From positions 1 to 20,486 of the forward strand of contig CAZECW010000168.1 in NCBI GenBank assembly GCA_964510585.1: DNA of 20,486 bases, written 5' to 3'. Of the stretch, positions 1,335-16,438 are shown in pieces (within the stretch, counting starts at the first letter, position 1; the number at the start of each line of letters is the position of its first letter). Source of the DNA: an uncultured archaeon (GTDB taxonomy: Archaea; Asgardarchaeota; Jordiarchaeia; Jordiarchaeales; Jordiarchaeaceae). Both the position numbers and the translations under genes were made by a program. Below the pieces are notes generated by a model. The model searched no databases, was not told the DNA's origin, and saw only the letters and a list, made by a program, of their open reading frames with translations.

Positions 1335-2681
1335 TTAAAAACCCTTTTGCTTCTGAACATATTCTGAAACCCTATGAGCTGCAGTAGCCCCTTGGCTGAC
1401 CGCAACTACTAGAAGCTGCAAATCGGTTGTCACATCGCCCACAGCATAAACACCTTCGATATTAGTCCTTTGATCCCTATCAACCTTTATAAATCCCCTC
1501 TCATCAATCTCAACACCCAGCTTACGGTAAATTTCCGTGTTAGGGGTCATACCCACTGCAAGAACCACCATATCCACCACCAGTTCAAAATCCTCATCTT
1601 CATCCAAGTCATGCAAAACTACCTTCTCCACAGTATCGGTTCCCTCGATTTTCACCAGCTCCGTCTTTGACAAAAGCTTAATCCTATCTGACCGCTTAAC
1701 CGCCTTAACGTTCTTGTCAAAACCCACAAGATCCTTCTCCTTATAGGCAAAGGTAATCTTATCCGCAATATTCTCCAAAGCCAAAGCTGACTCTAAAGCT
1801 TGCTCTCCATTACCATAAACCAGCACCCGCTTACCCATAAACTTCTCGGGATAAGACACATAATAGTAAACGCCCTTATCGCCCTTAGTGAAATCAGCTT
1901 CGCCAGGAATACCACAAGCTAGAGGGAGAGTGCCCGTAGCAATAATCACCGCTCTTGCGCGATACTCACCCATAGAAGTCTTAACCACCTTCTCTGGAGA
2001 GACCTCATTCACAAACTCGTTTTTCATCTCTACACCCAATTCATGTGCCTGCTTCAACAGATTAGTAACAAAATCTCTGCCCAAGGTGTTGTCAGGCAAC
2101 CCCGGAAAATTGAGAATCTTCTTGTTGGGATAAATTGTTGATAAAACGCCACCCCAAGATTTACCCTCAAAAACCGCCACACTCAAACCCCTAGCAGCGG
2201 TCTGAATAGCTGCAGTAAGCCCAGCAGGCCCACCTCCAACAACAATCACATCATAATCAAAAGCACCCTCAACCCTCGCCTGAACACCAACCTCGCCTTT
2301 TTCCTTACGGGACAAATAATCCTTGATAGCAGCATGCAAAGCATCAGCAGCCAAATTACTACAATGCATCTTAATAGGGGGCAAACCCTCCAACTCATCC
2401 GCCACATCTTTGCGAGTAATCTTCAAAGCCTCCTCCAAAGTTAAACCCTTAGCCATCTCAGTAATAATACTACTAGTAGCAATAGCCGAACCGCAACCAT
2501 AAGTTTTGAACTTTATATCCTCAAGACGCCCATCTTTTGAAACTTTTATAGTCATTTTCATCATGTCACCGCATAGGGGATTCCCCACTGTTCCTTCTCC
2601 GTCTGGGTTTTCTATTTCTCCGACATTTTTTGGATTTTTGAAGTGTTCTTTTACCTTTTCACTATATTGTGTAGGTTTCAA
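1335..2681 (-). CDS. iscU: Fusion of an IscU/NifU-N Fe-S scaffold (aa 1-~125) and a TrxB-fold, YumC-type ferredoxin:NAD(P)+ reductase-like flavoprotein (aa ~141-448)
   Basis: IscU motifs GNPLCGDMM (C37/D39), YGCGSAIA (C63) and KMHCSNLA (H106/C107). FAD motifs VIVVGGGPAG, GGVLSTIYPNKKILNFPG, VIIATG and TNIEGVYAVGDV. No CxxC. TTG start 8 nt after GGAGG. Confidence 0.9.
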   Translation of the reverse strand: MKPTQYSEKVKEHFKNPKNVGEIENPDGEGTVGNPLCGDMMKMTIKVSKDGRLEDIKFKTYGCGSAIATSSIITEMAKGLTLEEALKITRKDVADELEGLPPIKMHCSNLAADALHAAIKDYLSRKEKGEVGVQARVEGAFDYDVIVVGGGPAGLTAAIQTAARGLSVAVFEGKSWGGVLSTIYPNKKILNFPGLPDNTLGRDFVTNLLKQAHELGVEMKNEFVNEVSPEKVVKTSMGEYRARAVIIATGTLPLACGIPGEADFTKGDKGVYYYVSYPEKFMGKRVLVYGNGEQALESALALENIADKITFAYKEKDLVGFDKNVKAVKRSDRIKLLSKTELVKIEGTDTVEKVVLHDLDEDEDFELVVDMVVLAVGMTPNTEIYRKLGVEIDERGFIKVDRDQRTNIEGVYAVGDVTTDLQLLVVAVSQGATAAHRVSEYVQKQKGF

Positions 2682-5377: not shown

Positions 5378-5712
5378 TTTAGCTTCTATCTCAATAGTTA
5401 ACACTTTTAATTTTTATAGCAATACACCATTCACGCCTTTTCTATTTTTTCATCTATGATTCACAAGTGGCGAACACTAACCTTCACCGAAAAATTAGAG
5501 TTTCTAAATCTCTGCAGGAGAAATAGTAGAAATCGGAAAAAATTCACGAAGGGTTAAACGTTTGTGTCCCGCGTTTACTATGTTGGAGTGGTAACTGTCG
5601 GGGTATGGAACGCGAGAAAAAATTTTTGGAATCGAGTTCTCCCTTCAATTTCACAATTTTGTTATAACTAAAATTTGTTTGGATTAAGGTCTGCACGCTA
5701 TGAATGTGGGCT

Positions 5713-5747: not shown

Positions 5748-6986
5748 TTATTGTTCCTCTTTGGGTGTTAGGGGAGAGAGTTTTCTGAGTCTCTCTATTA
5801 CTTGTGGCAGGGCTTCGAGTAAGTAGTCCACGTCTTCTTCGCTGTTGTATTTGCCCAATGTGAGTTCCAGTGAGCCGTGTGCTTCTTCTTTTAGCAGCCC
5901 CGTGGCTATAAGTACATGTGAGGGCTCAAGTCTTTTTGCGGCGCAAGCAGAGCCAGTTGATACAGCTATTCCCCTCATGTTTAGACCTAGTAATATTGCT
6001 TCTCCCTCAACATAGTCGAATCTGAAATGAGCATTGTTTGGTAGTCTCAGAGTAGGGTGCCCGTTAAGATAGGAATGGTCAATAGTATCCAGCACAGTGC
6101 TTATGATTCTGTCTCTCATCTTTTGTATTCTAGCACTGTCACCATCCATCTCTTTTTTGGCTATCTCCGCTGCTTTTCCCATACCTACAATGCCTGGCAC
6201 GTTCTCGGTTCCAGATCTTAGACCTCTCTCTTGTCCTCCTCCCTGTATTATGGGCTCTATCATAGTTCCAGATTTTATGTAAAGTGCTCCCACTCCCCGT
6301 GGACCATAGATGTCATTTGAGGATAGTGTTAGCAAGTCTATTCCGTCTTTTTGCACATCTATGGGTATCTGTCCCTCAGCTGCTACGGCGTCCACATGGA
6401 GGAGCACATTATGGTCGTGAGCTATTTTCGATATTTCTTTTATGGGTTCTATGGTTCCTATCTCGTTGTTAGCATAGTTTATTGATATGAGTAGAGTTTC
6501 GGGCTTAATTTGTCTCTCCAACTTATCGAGGTTCACTAATCCATACTTGTCAACGCCAACACTACTCGTTTTGAACCCAAATTTTTCAAGATATTTAGCT
6601 ATGTTTATGATGGATATATGCTCTATAGCGGATATTATTAAGTGGTTTCCTTTGTTCTGATTTCTAAAGCATACCCCTTTTAAGGCTAGATTGTTGGATT
6701 CTGTTGCACCTGAAGTGAAGACAATTTCTTTGGGATCCTTGGCGCCTATAAGGTCAGCAACCTTTTTTCGAGCATCCTCCACGGCTTCAACTGGTAAGTC
6801 ACCAAGAAGATGTAAAGAAGAGGGATTACCAAAAATTTCCCTATGGTAGGGATTCATTGCCTCCAGCACTCTAGAATCCACCGGTTTACCAGAAACATAA
6901 TCCATGTAGACAAGACGAAAACGCCCCTCCTGTTTCAGCGAACCCAGATCAGGTACTTCACAAAAATCATCTTTTCCTTTCAACAA
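5748..6986 (-). CDS. iscS: IscS/NifS class-I family protein of the Archaeoglobus type (PLP Lys replaced by Asp; probably not an active cysteine desulfurase)
   Basis: GNPSSLH, IVFTSGATESNNLALKG, SAIEHISI, ANNEIGTIEP, HVDAV, GGGQERGLRSGTENVPGIVG and STGSAC(348) are present. Canonical S.HK.YGPKG reads SSNDIYGPRG. Confidence 0.9.
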   Translation of the reverse strand: MLKGKDDFCEVPDLGSLKQEGRFRLVYMDYVSGKPVDSRVLEAMNPYHREIFGNPSSLHLLGDLPVEAVEDARKKVADLIGAKDPKEIVFTSGATESNNLALKGVCFRNQNKGNHLIISAIEHISIINIAKYLEKFGFKTSSVGVDKYGLVNLDKLERQIKPETLLISINYANNEIGTIEPIKEISKIAHDHNVLLHVDAVAAEGQIPIDVQKDGIDLLTLSSNDIYGPRGVGALYIKSGTMIEPIIQGGGQERGLRSGTENVPGIVGMGKAAEIAKKEMDGDSARIQKMRDRIISTVLDTIDHSYLNGHPTLRLPNNAHFRFDYVEGEAILLGLNMRGIAVSTGSACAAKRLEPSHVLIATGLLKEEAHGSLELTLGKYNSEEDVDYLLEALPQVIERLRKLSPLTPKEEQ

Positions 6987-7339: not shown

Positions 7340-7606
7340 TTATTTTAGCTTTTTCACCAGAAAGCGAAGTGTTCTTCCACTCTTTTCTAATTTTAAAATT
7401 TGGTTTCCGGTTCTTTTAGCCCATCGAGTTATGTCTTCCTCTGCAGCTGGATCGTCAGCCAGAATCTCCAAGACCTGGCCAACTTCTAGCTTTTCGATCT
7501 CTTCTTTAGTTCGGAATATGGGCTCTGGACAGTAGAGTCCAATTGCGTCTAATGTACGGTCTGCCTTAACCTCCTCTTGGCCCTTCTTTTCTTTGGAGCT
7601 CGACAT
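7340..7606 (-). CDS. tusA: TusA/SirA-family sulfur-carrier protein
   Basis: LDAIGLYCPEPIFRT (CPxP motif) and GQVLEILADDPAAEEDITRWAKRTG. ATG 10 nt after GGAGG. Confidence 0.9.
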   Translation of the reverse strand: MSSSKEKKGQEEVKADRTLDAIGLYCPEPIFRTKEEIEKLEVGQVLEILADDPAAEEDITRWAKRTGNQILKLEKSGRTLRFLVKKLK

Positions 7607-14499: not shown

Positions 14500-15741
14500 T
14501 TGGCTGAAATTAAGTGGCGAGTTCTATTTGATGAAACACAGAAAGAACGGGGACGTATTACAACAAGTTACGCTGCACTCAAAGGAGTTCTGGAAACTGA
14601 GGGCATTCAAAGTATAAGATTTGTTGATTTTCCAATAACATTGGATAAATTGAAGGACTTTGACGCTGTGGTATTCCCTTGTCCAGACCAGTCTAAACTG
14701 CAGCCTGGTGAAATTCGAGCGGTTTTGGATTACGTTTCCAGAGGTGGTGGAGTAGTTTTATTAAGCCATGCTGGCGGTGACAGGGGACTGAGAACCAATC
14801 TTAATGAGCTGGCTGAAAATTTTGGAATATCTTTTCAGAATAACCAAGTAACAGATGAGAGACAAAACTTGGGTTTGGAGAATCTACCAAAAATCACCAA
14901 GTTTAAGGATCACCCTGTTACCGAGGGAATAACAGAATTATGCTATTCTGCAGGTTGCAGCATAAAAATCGTTGGGGAAGCAGAAGCCTTAGCAATTACA
15001 AGCAGAACCGCTGAACCTCCAGATGCCATTATTCTAGCAGTTGCTAATTATGGAAATGGTAAGGTTGCCGCCCTAGGTTCATACGAAATTTTTAGAGATA
15101 GAATAATGGGTGGACTCAATACCTCGCAAAATATGGTTTTAGCAAAAAACATCTTTAAATGGATACTTACACCTTCAAAGCCTAAAGAAGCTCCTGCTAT
15201 ACCGGCTAAGGAGAAGATTAGTGAGGCAGTAGTGGAACCTAGTGTATCCCCGGAGGTTACACTAGGCGAAGAGAGAGTTAAACCCGTATTGACAGCGAGG
15301 CCTATGGAGGATGTTTCAAAAGCTCCGCAGCCTATAGCCGCTGCGTACACCCCTCAAATTGACAAGTTAATGACTGAGGTTACAACTTTAAGAAGGAGAT
15401 TCGATGCATTCATAGATGAGTTTAGAGAGTTTGCTGCACGAGTGCTGAGTCAAGGTATTACGCCTTCTGAAACTATTCGGACGGTTACACGTTCAGTACC
15501 TGTATCCTCGTCTCTAATAACTGATGTCGCTAAACGTGAAGAACTAGAAAGCTTAGAGTCAAGAATGCGCTCGCTCCAGAACCAGTTGGACTACATTACT
15601 AAGAGGTACCAGTCTGGAGCATTACAAAAAGCAGAGTACGCCGCACAAAGAGCAAAAATTCGGGGAGAAATGAGAACTATACAACAACAGATAAATGCAA
15701 TAACAGGAAAGACTGAGGAGCTACTGCCCACTGAGGATTAA
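14500..15741 (+). CDS. Cytoplasmic GIFT-domain (GldG/IFT52/DUF4350-like) protein with Pro-rich linker, coiled coil and C-terminal helical hairpin
   Basis: aa 1-224 align by eye to the IFT52 N-domain (VLFDETQKE, ITLDKL, EIRAVLDYVSRGGGV, GGD...TNLNEL..NFGI, GKVAALGS..IF.D, NIFKWI). No signal peptide or TM segment. Confidence 0.75.
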   Translation: MAEIKWRVLFDETQKERGRITTSYAALKGVLETEGIQSIRFVDFPITLDKLKDFDAVVFPCPDQSKLQPGEIRAVLDYVSRGGGVVLLSHAGGDRGLRTNLNELAENFGISFQNNQVTDERQNLGLENLPKITKFKDHPVTEGITELCYSAGCSIKIVGEAEALAITSRTAEPPDAIILAVANYGNGKVAALGSYEIFRDRIMGGLNTSQNMVLAKNIFKWILTPSKPKEAPAIPAKEKISEAVVEPSVSPEVTLGEERVKPVLTARPMEDVSKAPQPIAAAYTPQIDKLMTEVTTLRRRFDAFIDEFREFAARVLSQGITPSETIRTVTRSVPVSSSLITDVAKREELESLESRMRSLQNQLDYITKRYQSGALQKAEYAAQRAKIRGEMRTIQQQINAITGKTEELLPTED

Positions 15742-15871: not shown

Positions 15872-16438
15872 CTATTCTTTCATTTTTTTAAGGGTTTCGT
15901 CTCTTTCAAAGGCTTTTACTTTGTTTCTTATCCAAGTGTTTATCACCGCCTTAGCTTCTGGCATCAGTGTTTTCACCTTATCGAACAGTCCTAGTATGAA
16001 GACTATAATCTCGTCTTTTCTCCAACGGTCTTCCTGTTTAAAGAAGAATGTTATGTCGTAACCTTCTTCAGGGTTCATAACGTTAAGTTTCTCCCGAACC
16101 AGTTCCCGAACCAGTTTACTAATCAGGTATTCTTCGAAGGCGTCTCTCTTTTCAAAGTTGAGAGATAGTAGGGAGCTGTTAACTGTTTTTTGACCTTTTC
16201 CACGCATAACTTTTACTTCTTTGCACTGTCCGACATCGCATTTATTTTCGCAGAGTATACAGGGGTAGTCGCTGCCTCTGATTACGCAGACATGTGGCTG
16301 CAGGTCTAAAAGGAACTCTAAGGCGTCAGCTAATTCTTCAAGTTCAATTATTGTAACTTCTTCAACCTTGTCAAACCTTTCATCCAAAGACAGAGTGTCT
16401 AATGGCTCATTCGGTGGTTTGCCATATTTTTCTCCCAA
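15872..16438 (-). CDS. ARP2/3 complex subunit 4 (ARPC4)-like protein with Cys-rich insertion
   Basis: [20 protein letters not shown]...[26 protein letters not shown] and the C-terminal helix mirror ARPC4 [18 protein letters not shown]...[26 protein letters not shown] (recalled human sequence). Confidence 0.7.
   Translation of the reverse strand: [188 protein letters not shown]

Follow-up and report, generated by a model that had tools for sequence, protein, structure and literature searches.

An IscU scaffold fused to a CxxC-less, thioredoxin-reductase-like flavoprotein in Asgard and methane-oxidising archaea, a possible self-reducing scaffold for assembling Fe-S clusters

Where does an archaeal IscU scaffold obtain its electrons, and could it carry a source of its own? 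The question is raised by a single open frame on the minus strand of a 20,486-nucleotide stretch of DNA from an uncultured Asgard archaeon of hot springs (Jordiarchaeaceae; GenBank assembly GCA_964510585.1, contig CAZECW010000168.1, positions 1 to 20,486), which is called the window throughout. The frame encodes a 448-residue protein that joins IscU to a flavoprotein domain. Assembly of each [2Fe-2S] cluster on IscU takes two electrons when sulfur comes as persulfide, and two further electrons couple two [2Fe-2S] clusters into [4Fe-4S]; the iron-sulfur cluster (ISC) system uses ferredoxin. Bacteria and mitochondria deliver the electrons to IscU through a dedicated ferredoxin and reductase, and for the archaeal minimal iron-sulfur (MIS) system, thought to be ancestral, the electron donors are not known according to a 2026 review (PMC13066941). 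Judged from its sequence, the protein is a genuine two-module fusion: an IscU scaffold and, across a flexible linker, an FAD-binding, CxxC-less member of the low-molecular-weight thioredoxin reductase (TrxR) superfamily, which may reduce sulfur or clusters on the scaffold to which it is tethered. The gene and its parts are as follows.

1335..2681, minus strand: whole fusion gene, 448 codons plus stop (1335-1337), TTG start; frame and start are identical in two related loci, L001 and L002
2301..2669, minus strand: IscU/NifU_N scaffold domain, residues 5-127 (Pfam PF01592, 4.4e-48; TIGR03419; PDB 7c8m)
2571-2573 (C37), 2565-2567 (D39), 2493-2495 (C63), 2364-2366 (H106) and 2361-2363 (C107), minus strand: IscU ligand codons, checked at codon level
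2256..2300, minus strand: linker, residues 128-142, variable in sequence and length, with gaps in most homologues and a predicted local distance difference test score (pLDDT) below 50 at 131-139
1338..2255, minus strand: CxxC-less flavoprotein domain of TrxR fold, residues 143-448 (Pfam, TIGR01292, Foldseek, tree)
2220..2237, minus strand: FAD-binding GxGxxG motif, GGGPAG, residues 149-154; G149, G151 and G154 invariant
2115..2132, minus strand: YPNKKI, residues 184-189, a stretch common with TrxR-like ferredoxin:NAD(P) reductases (FNRs), from alignment
1851..1862, minus strand: YVSY, residues 274-277, at the position of the TrxR CxxC (alignment to 4zn0)
1797..1814, minus strand: GNGEQA, residues 290-295, the GxGxxA dinucleotide fingerprint of the NAD(P)H subdomain; G290, G292 and A295 invariant
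1728..1748, minus strand: AYKEKDL, residues 312-318, at the position of HRRxxxR, with the arginines that bind the NADPH 2'-phosphate lost (alignment)

The N-terminal module is, by its profile and structure matches, a canonical archaeal (MIS-type) IscU scaffold. NifU_N (PF01592) matches residues 5-127 at 163 bits against a cut-off of 22, and TIGR03419 (NifU_clost, the clostridial-type NifU/IscU model of NCBIfam) scores 190.7 against 187.9. The best PDB match is 7c8m, an archaeal IscU from Methanothrix, at about 70% identity (2e-57), and the IscU of the Archaeoglobus fulgidus IscS-IscU complex (4eb5) matches at 1e-49. The original prediction of an intact ligand set is borne out by the codons, and C37, D39, C63, H106 and C107 are all invariant across 116 full-length homologues. 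Also kept are Y6, F58 and K104 (the last residue of LPPIK, residues 100-104), which together with D39 have been named for cluster lability and dimer coupling (PMC13066941). The fusion shares fold family, ligands (Cys3, Asp, His) and close identity with archaeal IscU/MisU proteins; the known ones, however, stand alone at 130-150 residues, whereas here 320 flavoprotein residues are added.

The second module is matched by Pyr_redox_2 over residues 143-431 (156.6 bits against a cut-off of 26.1, 1.2e-45), so that NifU_N and Pyr_redox_2 occur in one open reading frame (ORF), as had been predicted. The predicted linker of about 15 residues stands as well, with its position corrected from 2260-2310 to 2256-2300. 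Upstream, a GGAGG lies 9 nt 5' of the TTG start and is itself preceded by an AT-rich stretch. At the other end, the last modelled helix (AlphaFold2, AF2) spans residues 421-445, three residues short of the terminus at 448.

That the junction is no product of assembly is shown by independent contigs that bridge it. From a different hot-spring study there is a contig of 16,088 nt that runs unbroken over 1100-2892, with 42 substitutions and its sole indel outside the ORF, and a 958-nt contig from a third study covers 1508-2465; uncovered parts in X2, X3 and X20 carry no meaning. The same 448-codon frame with its TTG start is found in L001, from the closed Freyarchaeum deiterrae genome (CP147778), and in L002, from a metagenome-assembled genome (MAG) labelled Lokiarchaeia. 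A search of 5.8 billion protein clusters (NCBI, JGI, ENA and Logan assemblies) recovered more than 100 full-length two-domain clusters of 433-454 residues. Comparison of the window with L001 and L002 gave dN/dS values of 0.05-0.10 for IscU, for the two FAD subdomains and for the NAD subdomain, against 0.23-0.45 for the linker. All folded parts are kept under purifying selection.

These sequences are already in public databases under generic names such as 'NifU', 'IscU 2' and 'thioredoxin reductase'. GenBank calls only a 318-326-residue reductase in three relatives (P0012-P0014), and L001:6001-6981 and L002:6001-6981 are annotated as the last 326 codons only ('NAD(P)/FAD-dependent oxidoreductase'). 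The IscU domain is missed there because of the TTG start at 5635. A split, reductase-only form was rejected for the two records checked (P0012 and P0014), which are start-codon miscalls, given that L001 and L002 hold the full frame. A full-text literature search found no description or test of the fusion, in agreement with the original remark that no characterised example was known; a name-based query for MisU/MisS was unreliable since it matched word starts.

By the tree and the database searches, the fusions make up a single family, narrow and old. When 1.84 billion representatives (50% identity level) were searched exhaustively with HMMER, only one other full-length representative came up (P0038, 57% identity), and the named sources of full-length homologues are Jordarchaeaceae, Methanoperedens, the anaerobic methanotrophic ANME-2 archaea (Methanocomedens) and Methanosarcinaceae. 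Among the 41 Asgard genomes searched, the full fusion is present in all six of the window's own Freyarchaeum-like genus, including one closed genome of 3.6 Mb; none of the 35 genomes searched from 17 other families yielded it, and in its place five of these have a short form. A maximum-likelihood tree unites the reductase domains of all 15 sampled fusions in one clade (Shimodaira-Hasegawa-like approximate likelihood ratio test, SH-aLRT, 97) inside a CxxC-less clade (99); the four Asgard rows group together (100), and their sister group is the Methanoperedens and ANME-2 rows. Three shorter proteins also fall in the fusion clade; one of them, P0122, has an IscU-like beginning (MHC...) and looks like a fusion call cut short. 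This topology fits a single origin followed by transfer, in either direction, between Halobacteriota and one Asgard genus. Because it spans methane-oxidising archaea and a single Asgard genus, the family is a clear case of gene sharing between lineages. A separate retrieval of 80 related loci started from IscU peptides; most of the genes that it brought up are standalone IscU, and it gives no fusion count. Among distant matches, P0234 (292 residues) has an IscU with an insertion of about 160 residues, intein-like in appearance, directly behind the first ligand Cys, and P0140 (472 residues) and P0170 (482 residues) consist of three or four tandem IscU-like repeats without the first ligand Cys.

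What kind of reductase is attached to the scaffold? TIGR01292, the TrxR model, matches the domain end to end at 219.2 bits, under its cut-off of 343.45, and the best Foldseek match (5mh4) has a TM score of 0.88. As in low-Mr TrxRs, the domain has a two-domain FAD/NAD(P)H fold with GxGxxG and GxGxxA motifs; in contrast to them, it lacks CxxC. The CAIC of Methanosarcina mazei TrxR (4zn0) aligns to Y-V-S-Y at residues 274-277, and this column holds no Cys anywhere in the fusion family, which upholds the earlier observation that the motif is missing.

The domain had further been assigned to the YumC-type FNRs, and here the evidence is divided. Like TrxR-like FNRs, it has a two-Rossmann TrxR fold without CxxC and a GG.L..(L/I)YP.K.I stretch. 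Within the motif GGVLSTIYPNKKI (residues 177-189), the YPxKxI stretch aligns gap-free to the FNRs 2zbw and 6gas, whereas the TrxR 4zn0 shows a three-residue gap there, which bears out the original motif observation. In contrast, the three-residue FNR hinge insert after the ATG motif is absent, the family having TrxR length in the profile alignment; the FNR insert after the GD motif is absent in the CxxC-less clade; and the FAD-covering C-terminal extension is absent, FNR chains running 16-20 residues past the aligned part. The hinge insert and a C-terminal loop over the FAD of the other subunit are hallmarks of FNRs (PMC8564101). The HRRxxxR motif is likewise missing from the Asgard clade. A profile of the CxxC-less clade scored 283.7 bits against 2zbw, 278.7 against 6gas and 278.4 against 4zn0, making FNRs and TrxRs nearly equal. 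These profile scores against PDB stand in for placement in the tree, which contains no YumC-type FNRs, none being among the best 150 representatives; they also supersede a PDB search with the 37-residue motif region alone, which gave one insignificant match. Given the missing hinge insert, post-GD insert and C-terminal extension and the equal scores of TrxRs, 'YumC-type' overstates the case.

The nearest standalone relatives (P0121, P0123, P0124, P0126, P0128-P0134 and a 318-residue paralogue on contig C25 of the window's own genome) all lack CxxC. They have in common the sequence W-G-G-(L/I)-x-x-(L/F)-(Y/C)-P-x-K-x-I, carry an aromatic-rich loop (G-V-Y-Y-Y-V type) at the TrxR CxxC position, and in most cases contain HRRDxFRA and end in (R/K)-x-P-Y-W. 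Together with the fusions they are separate from the CxxC-bearing TrxRs (the SH-aLRT 99 clade above), and it is with these 'PYW-tail' proteins that the fusions branch. On this evidence the flavin domain is a separate CxxC-less branch of the TrxR superfamily. A YpdA-type bacillithiol-disulfide reductase was considered and rejected, since TIGR04018 reaches 86 bits against a cut-off of 340 and the Cys in the GxGxxG loop of YpdA is absent. As a side observation, the paralogue on C25 (L008:1492-2448, plus strand), which has a PYW tail and keeps HRRDSFRA, faces a convergent neighbour, a true TrxR of 314 residues with CATC (L008:2638-3582, minus strand); the pair also occurs in sister genomes G003, G004 and G005.

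The FAD motifs (GxGxxG, ATG, GD) and the GxGxxA glycines are invariant throughout the fusion family, and for this reason the protein very probably binds FAD. The nucleotide site differs between lineages. Methanoperedens fusions combine GGGNSA with A-H-R-x-D-E-L-R-A (AHRKDELRA), and their site looks like an NADPH site; ANME-2 fusions have G-x-G-Y-N-A and V-T-(D/E)-x-x-S-F; Asgard fusions have GNGEQA and A-Y-K-E-K-D-L. Since the arginines for the 2'-phosphate are gone in the Asgard clade while GxGxxA is kept, NADH would be a likelier donor there than NADPH, and the window's protein may bind NADH or a protein donor instead. The lineages also differ at residue 184 (2130-2132), aligned to the Tyr of the FNR LYPEK motif, which is Cys in 105 of 116 fusion homologues and Tyr in the Asgard clade only. 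This lone Cys could be redox-active in the Methanoperedens and ANME-2 enzymes.

The neighbouring genes are these.

5748..6986, minus strand: IscS-like partner without the pyridoxal phosphate (PLP) lysine, SSND at 6312-6323 in place of S-x-H-K; loop Cys348 kept (5943-5945)
7340..7606, minus strand: TusA sulfur carrier just upstream of IscS (Pfam PF01206, 6.4e-26; CPEP at 7520-7531), also beside IscS in L001 and L002
524..1120, minus strand: FmdE-domain protein with a C-terminal C4 zinc ribbon (PF02663, 3.7e-38), 214 nt downstream of the fusion

On the coding strand, the order in the window is TusA, IscS, a membrane protein (opposite strand), a HAD phosphatase, the fusion and the FmdE/zinc-ribbon protein, with the fusion 3 kb from IscS and TusA. 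L001 and L002 share this order and spacing, except that in L001 a smaller gene replaces the membrane protein and the HAD phosphatase is absent. A gap of 0-5 nt separates the end of iscS from the start of the fusion in Methanoperedens (L003, L004, L014) and in a Methanosarcinales MAG of ANME-2-like kind (L015), so that the fusion occupies the slot of iscU in iscSU pairs. In Methanoperedens a DsrE gene precedes it, and a flavodoxin gene lies 3' of it in L003 and L004. The FmdE/zinc-ribbon neighbour is kept in L001 and L002 and absent from the Methanoperedens loci, and whether it belongs to the fusion system is uncertain. No fdx gene was seen beside the fusion in any locus examined. Elsewhere in the window, two Pfam matches, weak but over cut-off, look like the eukaryote-signature-type proteins reported for Asgard archaea: ARPC4, an Arp2/3 subunit (15872-16438, minus strand, 30.1 bits), and the IFT52 GIFT domain (14500-15741, plus strand, 51.6 bits).

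The pairing with IscS is strict. In SSND the PLP lysine is Asp and the His is Asn, and an SSND IscS accompanies the fusion in six of six distinct loci where IscS was seen (window, L001, L002, L003/L004, L014 and L015); the loop cysteine is retained. The A. fulgidus IscS likewise has Asp for the PLP lysine and shows no desulfurase activity (PMC8918507). Standalone IscU, on the other hand, has a canonical S-x-H-K IscS as its neighbour, in the same genomes or in sister genomes, namely at L006 in the window's genome and at L020, L021, L051 and L083 in Methanoperedens, L014 and L020 being one MAG. The only other IscU-like gene of the window's genome encodes a standalone protein of 122 residues with C37 changed to D (NPADGD) and H106 to E (KKNEC), so the fusion carries the only canonical Cys3 site in that genome. 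This two-cysteine 'IscU' (L006:1501-1869; contig C28:13479-13844) lies 11 nt after a canonical S-G-H-K IscS (L006:345-1490). A SufB gene is also present in this genome.

The fusion also has a shorter relative. Thirteen of the 80 loci fetched via IscU peptides encode proteins of 257-278 residues in which IscU is followed by about 130 residues.

Short-form loci: L043:1308-2111 and L018:4992-5804; L022, L041, L042, L044, L045, L049, L074, L079, L080, L085, L089 and L091; also P0125 and P0127

The added residues correspond to the NAD subdomain of the fusion (residues 269-374; 42% identity, E 1e-17) and match Pfam Pyr_redox at 25.9 bits, and an acidic signature, VEKVV.HD.DEDE..EL.VD, is common to the short form and specifically the Asgard full-length clade. 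The genes lie directly after lysine-less IscS genes. Their hosts are Asgard archaea of Loki and Thor type and bacteria, the latter known from MAGs labelled Aminicenantes, Deltaproteobacteria, Spirochaetota, Stahlbacteria and Actinomycetota. Thus the short form resembles the full fusion in its IscU, its position and its homologous module, and differs in having no FAD domain and a GxGxxA degraded to D-S-G-D-E-S. Because of these two losses it cannot be a flavoenzyme, which points to a further role of the NAD subdomain, independent of nucleotide, with IscU or IscS.

What, then, would the full fusion do? Given a labile-cluster scaffold, a tether, an FAD domain without a dithiol relay, a desulfurase-dead IscS that keeps its Cys, and TusA or DsrE nearby, the simplest reading is a scaffold with its own reductase. 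We give even chances to such a self-reducing scaffold, in which the fused flavin domain would supply electrons for sulfur reduction or cluster coupling on the tethered IscU. The flavin module would take reducing equivalents from a pyridine nucleotide (probably NADH in the Asgard clade) or from a small redox protein, for which flavodoxin is a candidate, and would pass them to the fused scaffold, in line with the direct flavin-to-scaffold transfer originally suggested. Sulfane sulfur (S0) would arrive by a TusA/IscS-Cys relay and not from cysteine. The electrons would then reduce S0 to sulfide, drive the two-electron coupling of two [2Fe-2S] clusters into [4Fe-4S], or both. TrxR-fold proteins form homodimers, so a pair of IscU domains would be held together in the fusion, an arrangement that would suit reductive coupling.

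In this scheme the flavin module would stand in for the ISC ferredoxin and ferredoxin reductase, a job that no known MIS component does. The proposed task equals that of Fdx/FDX2 and its reductase, which provide electrons for persulfide reduction and [2Fe-2S] coupling on IscU, although those are separate proteins of unrelated folds. Other architectures offer partial precedents. U-type scaffolds with a built-in redox module are known, and here, by its motifs, the module is a flavoprotein. The three-domain NifU of the Azotobacter type likewise carries, on the same chain as a U-type scaffold, a redox module with a presumed part in cluster assembly (PMC13066941), but that module is a [2Fe-2S] ferredoxin-like domain, whereas the module here is predicted to be an FAD two-electron/one-electron converter. 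Pfam matches the fusion only with NifU_N and flavoprotein families, so the central [2Fe-2S] domain and the C-terminal Nfu domain are absent, and TIGR02000 matches residues 5-123 only (146.5 against a cut-off of 273.3). AhpF and NTRC also tether a TrxR-fold reductase by a linker to the domain it reduces; in AhpF, which is among the HMM and Foldseek matches, the substrate domain is N-terminal as in the fusion. In both, however, electrons leave the flavin for a CxxC, from which they reach the CxxC of a thioredoxin-fold domain, while the fusion has neither CxxC and its tethered domain is a metal-cluster scaffold.

Several points weigh against a self-reducing scaffold. With sulfide as the source of sulfur, which has been proposed for A. 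fulgidus, there would be no need to reduce persulfide. The NADPH motif HRRxxxR and the C-terminal PYW tail of the family are lost in the Asgard clade, and the NAD-like part can, to judge from the short form with its destroyed GxGxxA, have a non-redox role. Lysine-less IscS occurs with plain IscU in 19 loci from many archaea, so a fused reductase is no general requirement. The AF2 full-length model leaves the arrangement of the IscU and flavin domains unfixed (predicted template modelling score, pTM, 0.59; linker pLDDT below 50). Three short RNA-library contigs (run X20), only 90-95% alike, come from a relative and are a weak hint, not counted as expression. A complex prediction of the IscU domain against the reductase domain with FAD (interface score ipSAE 0.00) carries no weight either way.

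A more specific version, which we regard as tentative and rather unlikely, extends the self-reducing scaffold to a second, cysteine-independent line of Fe-S assembly. Sulfane sulfur would pass from TusA (DsrE in Methanoperedens) to the loop Cys of the PLP-less IscS and be reduced directly by the flavin to sulfide on IscU, with neither ferredoxin nor dithiol. In this line the flavin site vacated by CxxC would act as a persulfide reductase for its own scaffold.

Among the other explanations, the one that survives best, improbable as we judge it, is that the reductase part of the Asgard fusions no longer turns over nucleotide and serves IscU and IscS as a platform for dimerisation or docking, a stage towards the short form. 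It would account for the stepwise decay of the nucleotide motifs, from GGGNSA with HR.DELRA in Methanoperedens through GNGEQA with AYKEKDL in Asgard archaea to DSGDES in the short form, and for a short form that is common (13/80 loci) and matches the NAD subdomain at 42% identity (E 1e-17) with a signature specific to the Asgard clade. Yet all the FAD-binding motifs and the GxGxxA glycines are intact, and the FAD subdomains, which a pure docking module would not need, are as strictly selected as IscU (dN/dS 0.06-0.10).

It is decidedly improbable that iron is the acceptor, with the flavin domain reducing Fe(III) or its chelates to Fe(II) beside the scaffold. The conservation of the flavin motifs and the dN/dS values would fit this equally well. 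FADH2-dependent ferric reduction has reportedly been proposed for SufBC2D, and we count it in favour of iron loading, as we do the precedent of Staphylococcus aureus IruO, a TrxR-like FNR homologue that is an iron-uptake oxidoreductase (PMC8564101). The hosts, however, are anaerobes known from hot-spring and sediment metagenomes; Fe(II) should be available in such reduced habitats, and the strict pairing with lysine-less IscS and the TusA or DsrE neighbours point to the sulfur side.

We think it just as improbable that the IscU-like domain is a built-in ferredoxin, whose permanent cluster would relay one electron in an oxidoreductase acting on an external partner, so that the protein would be an enzyme and no scaffold, the second option originally raised. 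NifU shows that scaffolds can carry a permanent redox cluster (PMC13066941), and a stable [2Fe-2S] cluster is present in the IscS-IscU complex of A. fulgidus (PMC8918507). Against this, all 116 homologues have D39, the ligand whose presence makes for a labile cluster; conservation extends over the whole IscU surface, with 70% identity to a working archaeal IscU; the gene stands in the iscU slot after iscS; and no candidate substrate gene is conserved across the three lineages.

Finally, there is practically no chance of an assembly chimera or of two genes merged by sequencing error, a reading that the reductase-only records P0012-P0014 might have favoured but that is refuted by the start miscalls in P0012 and P0014, the full 448-residue frame in the closed genome and in L002, the independent contigs across the junction and the more than 100 clusters of the same architecture.

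As a tethered flavin reductase, the fusion offers a candidate for the MIS electron donor that is contained in one polypeptide and directly testable. Its position beside a desulfurase-dead IscS and sulfur-carrier genes may show how 'inactive' IscS systems get reduced sulfur. If the cysteine-independent line were true, the fusion would be the first identified electron donor of the ancestral MIS system and would explain the persistence of lysine-less IscS proteins.

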